A DNA stretch of 64,000 nt from a virus (Duplodnaviria; Caudoviricetes): IMG/VR virus record IMGVR_UViG_3300048591_000242, positions 128,001 through 192,000 of that record; one strand, 5' to 3'. Shown here one piece after another: positions 1 to 42,113 of this stretch (position 1 is its first letter; each line of letters starts with the position of its first letter). A model generated the notes under the pieces. That model was not told the origin of the DNA. It saw only the letters and a list, made by a program, of their open reading frames with translations, and searched no databases. The position numbers were made by a program, and so were the translations under genes.

Positions 1-64
1 ATGGAAACATGTAGCAGTTCATAAGAGAACGCGCACCATCTAACGAGTGGTGTGGAATATAACG
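1..64 (+). mobile_element. 3' end of a probable group I intron interrupting phuZ (the rest lies upstream of the window)
   Basis: The PhuZ frame has an in-frame TAA at 41-43, and homology resumes exactly at AGT GGA AGT (SGS) at 65, preceded by G64. Nt 1-53 fold into three short hairpins (atg-GAAA-cat; gttc/gaac; gcacca/tggtgt) resembling P9, P9.1 and P9.2 at the end of the intron at 15162-16673. Confidence 0.7.
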
Positions 65-796
65 AGTGGAAGTGTGTTGGGCCCGCTGATAGTAGCGGAG
101 TTACTGCGTAGAGCTATCCCTGTCGTTGCGGTTATTGTGGGTTCCTCTGATTCCGCAAAAGAAGTAAACAACAGTCTAGATACGTTGTCTAGTTTACAGC
201 AGATGTCGAACGGCGGCCATACTGGCGGTAGAGCTATTCCTATGGTTTATTTGGAAAATGCTCGCGCAGTGAAGGGTAATAAAGAAGACAAGATGGCGAG
301 CCGCAGTGCTGTGGACAAGCAGGTTGAAGAAAATATTCGTCAACTGGCTTTACTGTTCTCTGGCATGCATCGTGAACTAGATAGAACTGATCTGGTAAAC
401 TGGTTAGACCACAGTAAGGTTTCTCCTTCTATACCTGCCCAGTTACTGGAAGTCATTATTCACAAAGAAGACGACAGCAACATGCTGGAGGCTTATAGTG
501 GTTTAGTGGTAGGGGTGGCTAGTTTATTGGCCAGTGAAGATGATCTTATTTCTGATCTAAATGCACCCTATGCCACTAAGGGGTATCTACAGGAAGAAGT
601 TCTGGAATATGCTGATATTCCAAATCACACATACATTACTACAGCAGCTCGAGTACCAAAAATATTCGAGCGTTTTACCCAAGCTAAGCAGCTCCACCGA
701 GATACCGTAGAGTCACTAAGCGGTATGGAAGTAGTAGGTGTTAATTCTGGATTTGGTACCTCCGGTATGTCCGGTGGAGACGGCATGGTAATTTAG
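65..796 (+). CDS. phuZ: PhuZ phage tubulin, 3' exon
   Basis: SGSVLGPLIVAELL matches the tubulin signature GGxGSVIGP of PhuZ; LDRTDLVNW; C-terminus GGDGMVI resembles the PhuZ tail; synteny upstream of the polymerase. Confidence 0.85.
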   Translation, partial: SGSVLGPLIVAELLRRAIPVVAVIVGSSDSAKEVNNSLDTLSSLQQMSNGGHTGGRAIPMVYLENARAVKGNKEDKMASRSAVDKQVEENIRQLALLFSGMHRELDRTDLVNWLDHSKVSPSIPAQLLEVIIHKEDDSNMLEAYSGLVVGVASLLASEDDLISDLNAPYATKGYLQEEVLEYADIPNHTYITTAARVPKIFERFTQAKQLHRDTVESLSGMEVVGVNSGFGTSGMSGGDGMVI

Positions 797-2664: not shown

Positions 2665-3060
2665 ATGCATTCCTATAATCATCTTTTTATGCCGTTTGAG
2701 CCTAATGTACAGGCGGCTATAGTTCTAGAACACCGTAACATTTTAAATATATGCTTAAATTCAGGCCTAGCAGATACGTGGTTGTTGTTGCCTGAAATAT
2801 ACACGTGCTTAATATTTAGACCAGAGATGGCGTATGAGGAAATAGCCGATCACCTCCTTAACAGTTCAATGGGGGATGTATTGGAGACTATGGTGGAATT
2901 TAATTATCCAAATTTTACAAATTTGCTTTATAAGTTTGTAGCTGATGTAGTGGAGAGTAGTAGTAAATTTCCATACGACCCAGCTATATACAGAGGCATG
3001 TATGTATTTGAGGCAAGGCCAGTTAGTCGTGACCACATAGCCATTACTTTTAATGTATGA
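2665..3060 (+). CDS. hypothetical protein
   Basis: 131-aa ORF with GAGG RBS. Confidence 0.75.
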   Translation: MHSYNHLFMPFEPNVQAAIVLEHRNILNICLNSGLADTWLLLPEIYTCLIFRPEMAYEEIADHLLNSSMGDVLETMVEFNYPNFTNLLYKFVADVVESSSKFPYDPAIYRGMYVFEARPVSRDHIAITFNV

Positions 3061-3440: not shown

Positions 3441-3752
3441 GTGGCGATAGATATAATAATCAGAGCCGACAACTGGGAAGAGCTAATTGGTGTCATACAC
3501 TGCATCAATTATGCCGATATACCCAGTGACGTATCTATAAGAATGGCCATTTGTAAAGATCTGGAAAAAACCATGAAGGCTTTGTTAAAGGCTAGTGTGG
3601 ATATAGATGATGTATTGTTATCTCATCCAGAAATAGCGATACATTTTAACGAACTTTGGGATAATATACAAGGCTACGGCTATGATATTTCGGATATCAA
3701 GATAATTGATAATTCCGGATCAATTTTAATGCGCATGGGGAGAATTAAATGA
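3441..3752 (+). CDS. hypothetical protein
   Basis: 103-aa ORF, GTG start, ATGA overlap with the next gene. Confidence 0.7.
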   Translation: MAIDIIIRADNWEELIGVIHCINYADIPSDVSIRMAICKDLEKTMKALLKASVDIDDVLLSHPEIAIHFNELWDNIQGYGYDISDIKIIDNSGSILMRMGRIK

Positions 3753-4960: not shown

Positions 4961-7292
4961 ATGAGCAATAACCCTTTCATAAGAGATCCGAAGAAATACA
5001 TAAGGGATCTTGATATAATTTCTAACTACTGTGAGAATATGGCGCAGTACTTAGCCATTTCTACTGGGGATAAATACGAAGACGTTCTATTGTGGGTAAA
5101 ATCAAACATCAAACCAGTAGAGCCTAAACTTAAAGTATTAGCCAGAAGAGACGGAGCTGATAGAAAAAAGGAAGTACAGGAATTATCCAAATATTTAAAT
5201 GAGGTATCTCATACTAACAGACTACTAGGGCCTAACCTAATAGTCTATGATAATCCTAAAAAGAATAAGTCTTTTATTTCTGAATTTATAGATAAGGGAT
5301 TAGAGAGGAGATCCATTGTAAAGAAGAAGGGACAGAAGGCTGAGATGGAAGGGGATATGGAAACAGCTATTTTCTGTGACAATCAACAGGGTAGAATAAA
5401 GATTCTAAACAACTCTATCTCGGGCGCACATGCGTCGCCACATAACCCTATTTATAATGCTACAGCGCATACTACACTTACCTCCGTATGTAGGTGTGCT
5501 ACTAGTTATTCTAATGCGGTAGTAGAAAAACTACTTACCGGCAACCGACATTATTATAGTCCGGAAATAGCTCTGGCTGACTTAGCCTCTATTATCAGAA
5601 TAACTGATTTAGATAAGCTAGAGAAAGCAATGGCTAAGTACTCCATAGTGCCACCTACAAAGGAATATGCTTTAGCGCATATTCTAGAGTCTTGTAATTT
5701 GTACTGGAGAAGTCCTACTGGAAACAGACAGCTATCTGAGTTTATAAACGCTATGTCTGACATAGAACTATCTGCTATAACTTACGTATCTGACCTTAAA
5801 GGTATAAGAGATACCAATGATGCCTTCATGCGCAGATTCATAGGCTGTTTGGTGGAAAAGGCCACAGTAGGTATAGATGAGCCTGAGAAGTATCACAAAG
5901 CCGCTGGTGGAGATTTACTGGCTATGGTAGGGTTAGTTATGTCTGAGGAGCTAAAGGGCCGTACGGTGGATAGAATGGCTAAAGAGGACCCAGAGTACTA
6001 CCGACTATATGGTGCTACTATAAAACAGATACTGGATAGCCTGTCCCTGTACACTGACTTTATAGATGCATTCTTGCGTACCGACAACATGCCGCCAGCA
6101 ATTCACACCATAACCTCATCGCTACGACGAGTGGCTATAGTCTCTGACACCGATAGTACTATTTTTACTACTGAAAACTGGGTAAGATGGTACTTAGGAA
6201 AAAATGAGTTTAATGTTAAAGCTATGTCGGTAGCTGGAGCTATAGCTTATATAGACTCACAGGTACTAGCTCATACATTGGCCATGTTATCTAGACATTT
6301 GGGGGTAGGAGACGATCAGTTATTTAGGTTAGCTATGAAGTCTGAGTTCTATCAGCCGGTACTGGGTGTAACTAACATGTCAAAACATTATTTCTCATAC
6401 ATACAGGCATGTGAAGGTAATGTATACTCAGAATTAAAGTTTGATACTAAGGGGGTAAACCTTAAAAACTCCAGGCTGCCTGGGGTAATTAAAACTGAAC
6501 TTAATAACTACATAAGGTGGATTATGGATTCGGTTATGTCTGAAACCAAACCTACCTTACGTGACGTATTAAGAATACCGGCTACTATAGCCCACGATAT
6601 ATCAGCTAGTCTTTCTTCTGGGGATACTAGCTATTTATCACACATGCAAATAAAACCTAAGTCTTCCTATAAGGGAGATAATCCACCAGCATGGGTACAG
6701 TATCAGCTATGGACTAAGGTATTTGCTCCGGTATATGGGCCAGCAGACCCACCCCCGTATTCTGCAGTAAAGGTACCAGTTATTATAGATAGTAGAGCTA
6801 AGATGGATAGTTGGGCTGAGACTTTAGATCCGGCTATGTCTAAAAGACTACGTGAAATGGTAATGGGTGAATACACGTACACTAGTGTTGATGGCTTAGT
6901 TGAACTAAGAGATGGAGATGTGGTTTTATTCATAACCAGAAAAGGAGGTATTTGCGGGGATATGGGTAAGCTGTATACCTATAGAGGTCAAGCCAAGTCT
7001 ATTGATTTAAGTAGCTTAGGATTAAGTGAAGTATCGTCCTCTACCAGAATATGGGAGTATACTGGTTCCACTAGAGAAAGCTTTACTAGTTTTATGGTAC
7101 CTGTATCTAGATTACGTGATGGTAAAATGCCTGTAGAAATAGCGCGTATTGTAGATTCTGCTAAAATTGAAGACGAAATGTTAGCTGGATTTATGATAGC
7201 TCTTGAGACTACTGGGTTCTACATACGTAACTCTGGTAAAACCAGATTACTGTCTAAAGAAATAGATATTGATATTTACAAGGAGAACAAAA

Positions 7293-11946: not shown

Positions 11947-13860
11947 ATGGCTATTAAGAAAACAGGTGGAGAATCCGCAGAAGTGTCACAAGACAATGCT
12001 GGACCACAACAAGGATACACGTACCAACCACAATCTACAGGTGACGACCTGTTCTCTGGTATTGGTGTAGAGACTCTTTCTGGAGGCGTAGATACTGAAG
12101 GCTTCGCTGCGTTCAGTGCTGAGATGGAAAGACTATCTAAGTTACCTGAAGTACTCAGAACTATTAAGTTGAGTGTTATTCCGGTATCAAACCAACACCT
12201 TAGACTGCCGGTATTGGCCATGGCGGCTGAGTCTAAAGACGGGGTTGTGGTTTACAGCCTTCTTATTGAAGGCATGATGGGTCAGCCTTTGGAGCCTATT
12301 CGTGAAATCCGTCGTGATTTCGGTGGCCCACAGGGAGCTGAGATTATTATTGATCGTCCTACTAGTCGTTGCTATGACAACGGTTTGCGTAAGATCGTAG
12401 CGGCTGCGGTAGCTACGCAGTTAAATACCAGTGCTGAGCGTATCGTTCACCAGTCACATTGTGTTGTGCCACGTGGCGCTAACCTTAAGTGTGCTGAAAC
12501 CTGTCGCTCGTTCTTTGACAGCGCTAACCTAGCTCTGACAAACGCTGTAGCGCGCGATCGTATTGCCGGTGTTACCGTAGCTAACCTTACCAACCCAGCG
12601 GGTGTGGTAAATCAGCGTACTACTATTACACCTGGACAAAACAAGTTGAACAAAATCGGTTTGCCTATTGCGGCTGACTTTACAACCACTATTGAACTTG
12701 CTCGTAAGGCGCAAGAAAAGACCAGTTGGTCATCAGATATTCACGTTGCACAACAGCGTTACCATTTGGCAGAAGTAAGCGGTTACATTGATTTCTCAGT
12801 AGCTGGCCCAATTCCACCAAAACCAAACATGAATCCAATGCTGCCACAAACTGTACCTGGTTACATTCCTATGGTTGTAATTACAGAAATCGCTGGTTTG
12901 GCAAACAACGGTTCCTCTATTGAAGACATGCGCACGCAGTTACTGGGTATTGCTGCTACTACAGCGCTTACTGCAGATCACGGCTGGGTACGTGTATTTG
13001 AAAAGATGGCCGGTGCCAAATCCGTCAAGGCAGATATCGGTTTATTAGGTTTGGAACACGATCCGTATATCGGTCGTACACCAGAACTAGGTATGGTTAG
13101 CGTAGACAGCATTAGCTACGGTAAGCAGCCAAAAGAAGGCACAATGACTCCGAAGCAAGTAGCGGATTTGTGGTGTACTGATAAAGTAGCAGTAGCGCTG
13201 GATGTTGAACAGGGTGGCCGTTTGCACTGGATTCAGGATATCTTTGTAGCGGCCTCTGGTGTAGGTGATGAAACTGGTCGCCGTACCGCAGCTAACGAAC
13301 GTATCATTGCTGAGTGTGATGTTCTTACTAACGGTATTTTCTCACGTCTATGGACTGAGTTAAACGGTGGTCAGAAAGCACACGTGGTAGCTACTGAAAC
13401 TGTAGCAGTACATTTGGGTACGTATGATGGCGGTAAGAATGGCGGTCGCCGTGATCTTCGTTCTATCGACTATCTGACAATGCTAGGTCAAATGCCGAAA
13501 GATCTGGAAAAGCTAAGTGCAGCTACTGCCGCTACCATTCCTGGTGGCTGTAATGCTATTACACTTACTGATCGCAGAAACGCTATTGAAAACATTGTGG
13601 GCGATTGTGAATTCACCGGTATGGCTACACGCGTCTTCTTAACTGGTGGTTTCATCAATACTTTCGTACGTGCACTTATCCAGGCAGGTGTTACTTTCCG
13701 TTCTGACGATTTGTTAGGTTACGGTCAGTCTAGCCAGCGTGTGGTAATGAACTACAACTTGGCCGGTACTGCTTCTGAAGGTTTATATCAGACAGCATAT
13801 CAGCAGGGTTCAGTACCAGGCATCCCAGGCGGTGCTGGGTATATTAACCCATTGTTCTAG
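11947..13860 (+). CDS. chmA: chimallin, phage nuclear shell protein (phiKZ gp54-like)
   Basis: 637 aa; immediately upstream of the nvRNAP beta-prime gene; high-expression codon bias (GGT, CGT, ACT); flexible N- and C-terminal segments. Confidence 0.8.
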   Translation: MAIKKTGGESAEVSQDNAGPQQGYTYQPQSTGDDLFSGIGVETLSGGVDTEGFAAFSAEMERLSKLPEVLRTIKLSVIPVSNQHLRLPVLAMAAESKDGVVVYSLLIEGMMGQPLEPIREIRRDFGGPQGAEIIIDRPTSRCYDNGLRKIVAAAVATQLNTSAERIVHQSHCVVPRGANLKCAETCRSFFDSANLALTNAVARDRIAGVTVANLTNPAGVVNQRTTITPGQNKLNKIGLPIAADFTTTIELARKAQEKTSWSSDIHVAQQRYHLAEVSGYIDFSVAGPIPPKPNMNPMLPQTVPGYIPMVVITEIAGLANNGSSIEDMRTQLLGIAATTALTADHGWVRVFEKMAGAKSVKADIGLLGLEHDPYIGRTPELGMVSVDSISYGKQPKEGTMTPKQVADLWCTDKVAVALDVEQGGRLHWIQDIFVAASGVGDETGRRTAANERIIAECDVLTNGIFSRLWTELNGGQKAHVVATETVAVHLGTYDGGKNGGRRDLRSIDYLTMLGQMPKDLEKLSAATAATIPGGCNAITLTDRRNAIENIVGDCEFTGMATRVFLTGGFINTFVRALIQAGVTFRSDDLLGYGQSSQRVVMNYNLAGTASEGLYQTAYQQGSVPGIPGGAGYINPLF

Positions 13861-13934: not shown

Positions 13935-15161
13935 ATGAGTAAAAACATCCGCGTACTGGATCACGATGAACATTTTAGAAGTTTAAATTTTCCACCGATT
14001 ATTCTAAACGATATACCGGCCAGAACTAAGGAGGAGAGAGAAGCACTAAATAACATCATAATGACCACGTACGACAACACAGATACTTTAGAGTCAGTAC
14101 CTAGCTGTGCGTGTGGGGCTCTGTCGTATGGGCATAACTTAGGGGCCATGTGTAGTAGCTGTGGTACCAGAGTAGAAACCCCTACAGACAGAAAAATAGA
14201 GGCTACCGTATGGATACGTTCTCCAGAAGGTATAGTTTCTTTAGTAAACCCAGTATTGTGGTTGGTGTTAGGGAAGATCTTAACAAAATCACACTACAAC
14301 GTTCTGTATTGGTTTTGTAACCCATATGCTGAAGATCCCCCACATAACAACAAGGCTGCTATTCAGTTAATACGCAGATTTTTAAACTCTGGCATACCTC
14401 GAGGATTAAATTCCTTTATAGTGAACTTCGATCAGTTAGTACCTATCTTTCTGGCCGCAGTACCACTAGCTTCTAACCGACCACATCTGGAATCTTTTAT
14501 TTCAGAAAATAAAGACAAGTTCTTTCCACAGCACCTACCAGTACCGTCTAAGGTAGCGTTTGTTCTGGAGAAAACTAGTACTGGCTCTTATGCCGATATT
14601 AACATAAGAGACCCTATTAACGCATGTCTTACTGTAACTTCACTGGACTCTGGTACCTTAAGTAACGTTAAGAGACTAGAAAGCAGAATGTCTTCTGTTA
14701 TCAATGATTTATCGAACTATTACAAACATATGTTTGGTGATCCGTTCTCAGCTAAGGCCGGTCTTCTTAGAAAGACTGTATTTGGCAGTAGGATGGGTTA
14801 TAGTTTTCGATGCGTTATAACCAGTGCTCACGGGGTACACGACTATGAGCAAATAAAGATACCTTATTCTCAAGCGGTAACTCTACTTAAGGCACACCTT
14901 CTAAACAAGCTACACAAGTTGGAGTATAACGAGAGAGATGCTAAGGCTTATATAGCCCAGCATACCAAGGAGAGAGATCCTCTGCTTCTTAGGCTCTTAT
15001 ATGAGCTTATAGCAGAAGCACCAGGGGGTAAAGGTATACGTTGTCTCTGGATTCGGTACCCTACTTTAACGAGGGGCAGTATACAGTCGCTTCATATCTC
15101 GGATATCTCCGAGATGTCAGCTAGTCTTAGTATATTGGCCCTAAACGGCGCTACGGCTGAT
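13935..15161 (+). CDS. non-virion RNA polymerase beta-prime N-terminal subunit, exon 1 (phiKZ gp55-like)
   Basis: Zinc finger CACG...CSSCGT; LLRKTVFGSR..SFRCVIT; RYPTL; ends SILALNGATAD before the intron. Confidence 0.88.
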
Positions 15162-16673
15162 GAAGCGGCTTAACTAACGATACTTGAACAATTGTGTTTG
15201 CTAATGTACATTAATGCTCTATGTGTTCTTTAAATTAAATAAATATCATGGTGAGGATAAATGTATGTTAGTTGAAATTAAAGGTTTTCCTGGGTTCTAT
15301 AGGGCTGTTGGTACAACAAACCTGGCCGTAAATAAAAATGGAATCATTCTAGATTTAGTTACCCGTAAATACAAACTCACCGACGTTGCATCGGATGGGT
15401 ACATCACCACAAATGATGGCGGAGTAACTAGGAACGTTCATCGCATTATGGGTGATACATTCCTAAAACGTCCTAGCGGGAAGGGGACGTACATAATCAA
15501 CCATAAGGACGGAGATAAAACTAATCCTAGGTTAGATAATTTAGAATGGGTTACATATAGCGGTAACATAGAACATGCCTACGCTAATGGTCTAAGAACA
15601 GACAACACTCCGGTTGAAGTTTATAACTTGAAAACGGATGAAATTATAAAATTTATTAGTATACAGCAGTGTGCTAAGTATTTTAAACGTAACCATAACG
15701 CTATAGTTAAGTATCTTAAAAGCAAGCGTAATGCACCGTTTATGTTGTCGTACAGCATTAGAAAGGTAGGGGAAGGTTGGCCACCTCTTACCAAGAATGA
15801 TATTGGTAAAGTGGTAAATGGGGCACCCGTTAGCATAATAGCGGTTAATGTAAGTACCGGTGAAAAAATAATTTTCAGTGGTGCTAAAGCGGCGTCAGAA
15901 TATCTGGGTCTAAAGAAATCTGGAATAGGTGGTAACTTACGTGGCACACATGGCGATAAGCCGTACCACGGTTATAGATTTTACCATCTTAACACCTATA
16001 ATCTTGAGTCTACAGATAACGCAATTGATGTGCGTGATCCTCAATCAACTAAATCTAAAGGAAAACCACCTAGACAAAAGCCCAAAATGGTTAGTGCATT
16101 TAATCATGATACCGGTATTGAGGATGTGTTTAACTCCATGCGCGTATTTGCTGAGTCTGTAGGGACAACCTATGATGCAATAGCTAGATCGGTATGGAAA
16201 AACGCTGGTAGGTGGAAAAACTACACAATCAAGTATATAGGTTAAGCCGATAGTCCTCTAGGCTAGTAATGGTCTAGTAGTTTCTCTCTAATTGCTGGAA
16301 CCCACTAAAGATTCACCCACTACAACGTAACTGGAAACGGTAAGCGTGAAGGTATCGAAAGATAGAAAAAAGTGGTGAGTATGGAATATGACGATAGTAA
16401 GTCTAAGTTCTATAGACAATGTGGGAATCAGCAGCGAAGTTCCTAAGCTACTCTACCTTGGTAGAGGTGTATGGAATGTGCTCAACGATCAACCGGTAGC
16501 TCGGTGTAGGGTGGCAAGCGATGTAACAATCAGGCCATTCGAAATGGGAGGGGGCCTTTCATGTTTGTGTGAAAGGTTCATGATATGATCTAATATCCAT
16601 CTGTAATGGATGGGAAGTTCGCTACTTCGGTAGTGAGAACTGTATGGGTGTCGCGGCCCATATGAATGCAATG
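15162..16673 (+). mobile_element. group I intron (IA2-like) in the RNAP catalytic DxDGD motif
   Basis: P/Q elements aattgctggaa (16290) and aatcagcag (16426); P7 gctcaacgatca (16480) pairing with gatatgatct (16582); exon ends in U and intron ends in AAUG; splicing restores TADYDGD. Confidence 0.88.
15265..16245 (+). CDS. intron-encoded HNH homing endonuclease (I-HmuI-like) with NUMOD1-type C-terminal repeats
   Basis: VHRIMGDTF...INHKDGDKTNPRLDNLEWVTYSGNIEHA; three F.S...A...L repeats; GAGG RBS before ATG 15265. Confidence 0.92.
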   Translation: MLVEIKGFPGFYRAVGTTNLAVNKNGIILDLVTRKYKLTDVASDGYITTNDGGVTRNVHRIMGDTFLKRPSGKGTYIINHKDGDKTNPRLDNLEWVTYSGNIEHAYANGLRTDNTPVEVYNLKTDEIIKFISIQQCAKYFKRNHNAIVKYLKSKRNAPFMLSYSIRKVGEGWPPLTKNDIGKVVNGAPVSIIAVNVSTGEKIIFSGAKAASEYLGLKKSGIGGNLRGTHGDKPYHGYRFYHLNTYNLESTDNAIDVRDPQSTKSKGKPPRQKPKMVSAFNHDTGIEDVFNSMRVFAESVGTTYDAIARSVWKNAGRWKNYTIKYIG

Positions 16674-16883
16674 TACGATGGTGATGTTCTCAGTGGCTGT
16701 ATAGCCCTTAGTAGGAAGCAATATGATGACTTTGAGTACTTCAGACCACACTACGGTATTCATTCCTTTGTTAAGTTAGGTGAGCTAAATGGAAACTGCA
16801 GTTTACCAGAAACCGACATCGGTGTGATTAACTCGTGGTTTGAGTATGAAGAAGATGAGTTAGGTATTGTAGCTGAACGATAG
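16674..16883 (+). CDS. nvRNAP beta-prime N-terminal subunit, exon 2
   Basis: Begins YDGDVLSG, completing the catalytic motif; spliced product about 478 aa. Confidence 0.85.
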   Translation, partial: YDGDVLSGCIALSRKQYDDFEYFRPHYGIHSFVKLGELNGNCSLPETDIGVINSWFEYEEDELGIVAER

Positions 16884-41688: not shown

Positions 41689-42113
41689 AACATTACTCTC
41701 AGATTTCGGTCTGAGAGTATTTTCTATATTCTTTATTTTTTGTAAAAAAATCCTAGTAATAAAATACTGGCTAGGAGTTATATGGACATCAGTTTTTCAG
41801 AATTATTTTTCACGTAAACATTGAATGCAATGATGTCGGTTTATTCGTCGGGGCCTTACGCCCCCTCCTCATAAACCTCCCCTCTTTTTACAAATCATCA
41901 GTAAACTGAATTAATTTTTACTAAATTTTGATATGTATGAACATAGTTTTTTAACATAAAAATGAGGTACAAAGTAACTCATTTTCTATACTAAAAATGT
42001 AAGTTTAAATTAAAATATTTTAATAGTATATTTTACCTTTAGTTTAGGTTACTAAACTAAAACAGAGGCAGTATGTTAGTTAACTATTCTAAACCTTTAA
42101 AACAATTAAGCTT

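Follow-up and report, generated by a model that had tools for sequence, protein, structure and literature searches.

Evidence for a mobile group I intron in the GTP-binding signature of the phage tubulin gene phuZ

Introduction

The window analyzed here, a stretch of 64,000 nucleotides, comprises bases 128001–192000 of a viral record of 202,179 bp which ends in direct terminal repeats. It opens within a gene for the phage tubulin PhuZ, and the locus raises the question of what interrupts this gene and whether its parts can still give a complete protein. The original prediction, made from the window, was that the first 64 nt are the end of a group I intron. Phage genes for DNA and nucleotide metabolism often contain group I introns; to our knowledge, no such intron has been described in a cytoskeletal gene of a virus. 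Based on the DNA upstream of the window and on related phages, we consider it very probable that window positions 1–64 represent the 3' end of a mobile group I intron of 2349 nt which splits phuZ in its GTP-binding signature.

Materials and Methods

The DNA upstream of the window was covered by locus L002 (genome 123001–129000); window positions equal L002 positions minus 5000. The order of the ribozyme elements was established by reading by eye and by folding. The four closest intron copies were aligned after the ORFs had been trimmed at helix boundaries, because MAFFT smeared ORF1 over the P5 arm when full-length introns were used, and the consensus fold was calculated with RNAalifold. For the detection of the phuZ relatives L134–L136 in viral contigs a profile search was needed; a single exon-2 protein as query returned no relatives from these contigs, and a 16-base junction pattern gave chance matches only, none of which combined an upstream core element with a downstream SGS...GP frame. 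The set used for the analysis of recombination consists of the IMG/VR contigs L134/L136, L135, and L137 (samples 3300042270, 3300042271, 3300042279, and 3300042255).

Results

Two Exons Form a Complete phuZ Frame

A 5' exon ending in GGU had been predicted to lie upstream of the window, and such an exon was found there. It corresponds to positions 1–101 of the profile phrog_4733 "tubulin PhuZ" (E 6.9e-29), and reading on past its final GGT GGT leads to a stop after five codons. The second exon (65–793) corresponds to profile positions 102–299 (E 1.1e-34) and starts with AGT GGA AGT GTG TTG GGC CCG, so that the homology to PhuZ resumes as SGSVLGP directly after G64. Going back from AGT at 65 via 62 and 59 to 44 and 41, the frame is closed by the TAA at 41–43, and the stretch upstream of exon 2 is therefore no coding continuation of phuZ. 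All features are listed in Table 1.

Joined to each other, the exons result in a single complete frame of 347 aa with the PhuZ-type end ...GMVI. In an alignment with the intact PhuZs of the phages RTH11, LucasX, RAY, and JM-2012 the two exons are flush and the joined SGG/SGS is free of gaps, which places the break exactly at GG/SGS, where it had been proposed. The tail D(D/N)GM is common to the spliced PhuZ and these four proteins. Membership in the PhuZ family is further indicated by the GGxSGS signature in a tubulin-type N-domain, a phage TubZ C-domain, and the conserved C-terminal tail; Pfam TubZ_C_2 scores 18 on the protein and thus remains below its cut-off of 27. With exon 2 as tblastn query, 127 annotated phage PhuZ records were found, each with less than 40% identity. 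The cultured phages nearest by PhuZ include, among the matches listed, Vibrio phage BONAISHI and two Xanthomonas jumbo phages (about 35% identity). Since the genome also encodes a homolog of chimallin (Table 1), it belongs to a jumbo phage of the nucleus-forming type.

Table 1. Positions of the phuZ exons, of the elements of the intron, and of further features of the genome
Feature	Position	Strand	Details
phuZ exon 1	L002 2404-2715		104 aa, end ...VVIFSTSGG / TCA GGT GGT
Whole phuZ intron	genome C1:125716-128064 = window -2284 to 64 = L002 2716-5064	+	2349 nt
P1	GGU L002 2713-2715 with GCC 2739-2741		surrounds an extension hairpin
P2	L002 2742-2765
P3	L002 2769-2774 with 3666-3671		GUCUCC / GGAGAC
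P4	L002 2780-2784 with 3575-3579		5' strand GCGGG
P5	L002 2797-2808 with 3560-3572
ORF1	L002 2837-3487		in P5 extension
P7	L002 3621-3625 with 4988-4992		GACUA/UAGUC
P8	L002 3675-3685 with 4967-4978
ORF2	L002 3710-4990		in P8 loop
Intron 3' end (P9, P9.1, P9.2, terminal G)	window 1-64	+	last 64 nt of the intron
P9 hairpin, part in the window	window 1-14	+	GAAA tetraloop 4-7, 3' strand 8-14; by folding
P9.1 hairpin	window 17-30 (17-20/27-30)	+	GUUC/GAAC; by folding
P9.2 hairpin	window 32-54 (32-39/47-54)	+	CGCACCAU/GUGGUGUG, 8 bp; by folding
TAA in the PhuZ frame	window 41-43	+	in P9.2 loop, within the intron
Terminal G of the intron (omega-G)	window 64	+	3' splice site between 64 and 65
phuZ exon 2	window 65-796	+	243 codons, stop at 794-796
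Chimallin homolog	window 11947-13860		phrog_4795 E 1.8e-37; tblastn with phage RAY gp222 E 7.6e-15
RNA polymerase gene after chimallin, with second group I intron	window 13935-16880		phrog_2987 E 1e-112

Splice Sites and P1 Pairing

The end of exon 1 and position 65 of the window are 2349 nt apart. The last exon base is U and the last base of the insert is G, as required for group I introns, and the U is paired with a G in P1. In all intron-bearing alleles the sequence GGTGGT precedes an intron which ends in CG and is followed by AGTGG; the exon end GGU occurs in five of five intron-bearing lineages, and its partner GCC is part of a conserved AUAGCC guide. The intron-less alleles L010, L011, and L137 carry C at position -1 (GGC, Gly codon).

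The pairing with the exon comprises three base pairs only (GGU/GCC). Because the exon ends with GGUGGU (L002 2710–2715; guide 2739–2743), a second register of P1 is possible. This upstream register, CAGGU/GCCUG with 5 bp, is the stronger of the two in the 2349-nt copy. A 5' splice site three bases earlier was nevertheless rejected as the productive site, as it deletes a Gly kept by every PhuZ homolog; judged by its base pairs, the register could yield a minor product minus one Gly codon as a side reaction.

The 3' End of the Intron Within the Window

Three hairpins with the end ggaatataacG had been noted in the 64 nt ahead of exon 2, and folding identified them as P9, P9.1, and P9.2. The 5' strand of P9, CUGCAUG, begins 4 nt ahead of the window, outside of which CUGC is located; the helix aligns to P9 of the Rfam model and is conserved in four homologs. 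Among the homologs P9.1 contains one compensatory pair (U-A to G-C), and in P9.2 both sides are changed in eight of eight pairs. In all five intron lineages ...AACG or ...ATCG is found directly before AGTGGA.

A second exact copy of GAATGCAATG is located at 41823–41832 of the window, in an AT-rich intergenic spacer after a terminator-like hairpin. No intron signal was seen at this place, and the second copy is probably a coincidence.

The Ribozyme Core

Upstream of the window, the P3–P7 core that the original prediction called for is present. Starting at the 5' end, P1, P2, and the 5' strands of P3, P4, and P5 are followed by ORF1 and a three-way P5 extension with a GAAA hairpin. The middle of the intron contains the 3' strands of P5 and P4, P6, the 5' strand of P7, P7.1, P7.2, the 3' strand of P3, and the 5' strand of P8. 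After ORF2 come the 3' strand of P8, AAGAUAUAGUC (J8/7 and the 3' strand of P7), P9, P9.1, P9.2, and the terminal G. Thus the helices P3–P9 of a group I core including the P3/P7 pseudoknot are found.

RNAalifold recovered all nested helices, i.e., P2, P3, P4, P5, P6, P7.1, P7.2, P8, P9, P9.1, and P9.2, and compensatory pairs occur in seven of them (P2, P6, P7.1, P7.2, P8, P9.1, and P9.2). P3 and P4 are invariant across the four aligned copies; P7 was read by eye and is likewise invariant, so it has no support by covariation. The P5 arm of the 2349-nt copy was misaligned in the trimmed alignment, and when folded alone without ORF1 it adopted the P4/P5/three-way/P6 layout of the homologous intron L012.

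With the Rfam model Intron_gpI (RF00028) the intron reaches 36.1 bits (E 1.4e-6; L002 4794–5014, extending to window 1–14) and thereby stays below the gathering score of 50 bits; at this gathering score the whole window has no match. The low score results from the ORF insertions of 0.7 kb and 1.3 kb, which interrupt the ribozyme and cannot be bridged by the model. Searched alone, the middle part of the intron (L002 3488–3700) gave no Rfam match, because the partner strands of P3 and P4 are absent there. The strands of P3, J3/4, P4, J6/7, P7, J8/7, and P9 are the same or nearly the same as in homologs scoring 95–103 bits. In a blastn comparison of the locus with GenBank phages only two short patches were obtained, one in the core that separates the ORFs and one at the 3' end, and both fall in genes known to carry introns, e.g., the RNA polymerase genes of PhiPA3 and AR9; the core patch matches the PhiPA3 RNA polymerase site by 78%.

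By eye, the core resembles the core of the T4 td intron (IA2): P7.1/P7.2 are placed between P3' and P8, the J8/7-P7 strand presumably is AGAUAUAGUC in both, and a P9-P9.1-P9.2 tail ends in G. From the placement of P7.1/P7.2 the phuZ intron is provisionally assigned to subgroup IA2, as td-like. Three other classifications were rejected. A match to RAGATH-34 over P7.2–P8 and the start of ORF2 (27.6 bits vs. 60.7, E 0.59) was taken as chance, a twintron does not agree with the single set of core elements and an ORF1 insert which is nearly all coding, and an intein was dismissed on account of in-frame stop codons.

Introns at the Same Codon in Other Phages

A protein search with exon 2 returned full-length relatives as well as short C-terminal pieces, and the genomic contexts of the latter show the same split. 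The inserts, found in other metagenomic phage contigs, differ in size and content. L012 (450 nt) and L013/L014 (383 nt) contain no ORF and match the full Intron_gpI model with 103.3 and 95.3 bits, respectively. The insert of L134–L136 (1652 nt) encodes one HNH ORF and scores 53.5 bits, so that these homologs at the same codon pass Rfam. In L007 (1261 nt) one NUMOD4 ORF without HNH motif was found, and the P3–P7 core reaches 47.6 bits (E 1.4e-10). The spliced phuZ frames are all complete.

An aquaculture metagenome (run X1) contains a contig of about 90% identity with the same two-ORF phuZ intron, in which 652 nt of the HNH ORF (L002 4179–4832) are gone and 16 nt stand in their place. This copy and the HNH-less ORF of L007 look like decay stages of a homing cycle.

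Two Endonuclease ORFs in the Intron

ORF2 (426 aa) matches the HNH endonuclease I-HmuI (PDB 1U3E) with residues 13–158 (E 1.4e-14) and phrog_59 (E 3.7e-37). Among the Pfam domains, NUMOD1 exceeds its cut-off (25.6 bits), NUMOD4 is slightly under its own (21.2), and HNH_3 reaches 21.6 vs. a cut-off of 24.8. The translation shows the HNH motif NHKDGNKANNHYTNLEW, and ORF2 combines HNH and NUMOD modules, in the arrangement NUMOD4-HNH-NUMOD1, as enzymes of the I-HmuI type do. Like I-HmuI from the DNA polymerase intron of the Bacillus phage SPO1, ORF2 is encoded within an intron and belongs to the HNH enzymes with NUMOD modules; unlike I-HmuI (174 aa), it has an additional long C-terminal region, shared only with HNH ORFs of phuZ introns. 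Over the full length, ORF2 is 36% identical to its HNH counterpart from the phuZ intron of L134, and with the HNH ORF of the RNA polymerase intron of its own genome it has the catalytic N-terminus only in common. This distribution fits a C-terminal region that would be specific for the phuZ target. The TAG stop of ORF2 equals the first three bases of the 3' strand of P7. At L002 3696–3724 an 8-bp hairpin, CAAAAATC...GATTTTTG, extends over the earliest potential start codons of ORF2 and may limit translation of the HNH ORF.

ORF1 encodes 216 aa starting from the ATG at L002 2837 and matches two homing-endonuclease families of PHROG (E 4.7e-20 and 4.6e-14). Pfam DUF559 is weak (15 bits vs. a cut-off of 20.6), in the ESM Atlas the nearest clusters are viral zf-FCS/DUF559/Vsr, and searches in PDB and NCBIfam gave no match. 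Its translation shows the motif EADGLQHSD. ORF1 is provisionally described as a putative zinc-finger and DUF559/Vsr-like (EDxHD-type) nuclease. ORF1 is missing from the other phuZ-intron lineages and is probably a secondary invader. Its position is internal to the P5 arm and not in a terminal loop, and this might impede folding.

Indications of Mobility and a Natural Recombinant

The intron cores are 67–70% identical, compared with 50–55% for the host exons. In the PhuZ tree the four intron-bearing rows are scattered, each beside an intron-less relative, which requires the intron to have been gained or lost two to three times at the least.

The IMG/VR contigs reveal a recombinant. On either side of the insertion site, the intron-bearing L135 and the intron-less L137 diverge by about 10%. 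L134 and L136, identical assemblies from two samples, are of the L137 (recipient) type upstream and of the L135 (donor) type from there on: L134 equals L137 across 2348 nt upstream save positions -10 and -1, and it is identical to L135 starting 84 nt ahead of the site, across the intron, and for 4.7 kb beyond. The crossover therefore lies 10–84 nt upstream of the insertion site. By our own estimate, a chance crossover that near within the 8.7-kb locus has odds of roughly 2%. Co-conversion of flanking markers is described for homing of the I-HmuI type in a review, and the set of L134, L135, and L137 resembles it; a crossover near the site fits the prediction of a putative endonuclease-initiated homing with co-conversion.

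Further Group I Intron Matches of the Genome

In the whole genome, three Intron_gpI matches were found by Rfam. A second intron with a similar end, cited in support of the original prediction, does exist in the RNA polymerase gene that follows chimallin: agttc...gagaac is present, and the end gaatgcaatG is reached at 16673. Its core (16233–16611) scores 41.4 bits, under the gathering score of 50. Exon 1 of this gene appears to end at about 15161 (...NGATAD) and exon 2 opens with YDGD at 16674, so the split falls in the catalytic aspartate motif; the intron (about 15162–16673) contains an HNH ORF at 15214–16245. The third match is located outside of the window (genome C1:62545–62805) and, with 76 bits, over the gathering score.

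Discussion

Alternative Explanations

The reading of the locus as a mobile group I intron has to be weighed against three others. It is very unlikely that the intron has decayed to an element that no longer splices and that phuZ is a pseudogene in the phage studied. Such decay would agree with the Rfam score of this copy below the gathering score, with two large ORFs inside the ribozyme, and with the short P1; moreover, some chimalliviruses have no PhuZ. Erwinia phage Asesino, the subject of a paper cited in a review, is reportedly a nucleus-forming phage without PhuZ. However, the core strands are preserved as in the copies with 95–103 bits, both exons have open frames and strong PhuZ profile matches, ORF1 and ORF2 are both intact, and the relative with about 90% identity has the same arrangement.

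Phage genes split by free-standing endonuclease genes occur, and phuZ could have been split in this way into two associating polypeptides without RNA splicing, the C-terminal one starting at the in-frame GTG at window 47. We regard this as highly improbable, since the GTG has no ribosome-binding site ahead of it, the break goes through the GTP-binding loop, the insert comprises all core elements of a group I intron, with homology to introns that pass Rfam, and ORF-less inserts of 383 and 450 nt at the same codon are inexplicable by insertion of an endonuclease gene. The record is a metagenome-derived viral contig, for which an assembly or sequencing artefact, i.e., a frameshift or a chimeric join, has to be considered; its probability is close to negligible. 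A frameshift had been named as a possible cause of the break, which turned out to be an insertion of 2349 nt and no indel. The contig of about 90% identity comes from an independent run and has the same layout, and four further lineages from different samples carry an intron at the same codon.

Proposed Mechanism

As a mobile group I intron, the element is presumably spliced in vivo. phuZ would be transcribed as a precursor in which the ribozyme folds. An external guanosine would attack after the U of GGU, which is fixed by the U-G pair in P1; in the second step, the released exon would attack after the terminal G at window 64. The predicted ligated junction is ...TCAGGTGGT joined to AGTGGAAGT, and the mRNA would be translated to the PhuZ of 347 aa. 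In homing, the enzymes of ORF1 and ORF2 would presumably cut or nick those phuZ alleles of co-infecting relatives that have no intron, and the intron would be copied into the broken allele during repair.

A more far-reaching scenario, which we hold to be rather doubtful, joins two ideas: the intron endonucleases would serve as weapons against co-infecting nucleus-forming phages, and splicing would time the supply of PhuZ. The tubulin gene of the rival would be cut and its DNA replaced from the cut through at least 4.7 kb downstream, an extent suggested by the L134/L136 recombinant, and interference competition of the PhiPA3 gp210 type would thereby extend to the phage cytoskeleton. As the precursor would be made in the ribosome-free phage nucleus, splicing there could time the PhuZ supply.

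Comparison With Known Systems

Like the T4 td intron with I-TevI, the phuZ intron splits a phage protein gene at a conserved motif and has endonuclease ORFs looped out of the ribozyme. The two differ in the host gene, a tubulin gene in place of a gene of nucleotide metabolism, in the number and position of ORFs (two, in P5 and P8, vs. one in P6), and in the endonucleases, HNH and DUF559-like vs. GIY-YIG. The RNA polymerase intron of PhiPA3 with gp210 (PMC11620839) is likewise of group I and carries an HNH endonuclease, and it too interrupts a conserved gene in a jumbo phage of the nucleus-forming type; the host gene of the intron described here is phuZ, however, and the phage is known from metagenomes alone. 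The Jug phages (PMC12880540) are jumbo phages as well and have many group I introns that split conserved genes, namely terL, nrdD, and DNA polymerase genes; some of these introns are validated by metatranscriptome reads. In contrast to the phuZ intron, they have an average length of about 206 nt and their endonuclease genes are mostly separate; none of the split genes mentioned is a tubulin gene. More than one endonuclease ORF within a single group I intron is shared with fungal mitochondrial introns (PMC11835236). There the ORFs are of the LAGLIDADG or GIY-YIG type and the host genes are organellar, whereas the phuZ intron combines two unrelated families in a phage. The authors of that database paper from 2025 knew of no earlier group I intron with multiple endonucleases, and their cases are fungal.

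The assumption that no intron in a phage tubulin has been described held true in the sources covered. Full-text literature searches found no paper on an intron in PhuZ or another phage tubulin, and two recent jumbo-phage reviews treat the PhiPA3 RNA polymerase intron only. PhuZ matches were obtained in 211 GenBank phage records, and no split phuZ was found among them: the match is in one place in each, and in all of the 60 records listed an unbroken piece spans the intron site. It is well supported that an element of an ordinary kind resides in a host gene, the phage tubulin gene, for which no earlier report was found.

Implications

It is uncommon for a single phage intron to contain two endonuclease genes from unrelated families. 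For work on chimalliviruses, the phuZ intron represents a second natural intron-endonuclease system next to the RNA polymerase intron of PhiPA3, and it offers intron-bearing, intron-less, ORF-less, and decaying alleles together with a natural recombinant. With regard to annotation, a short PhuZ fragment in a jumbo phage from a metagenome may belong to a gene split by an intron and not to a pseudogene. The insertion interrupts the GTP-binding loop of a tubulin, PhuZ, which serves to position the phage nucleus. Should the proposed splicing hold true, spindle formation in phages with the phuZ intron would depend on RNA splicing, and splicing may thereby be tied to spindle assembly as a regulatory step.
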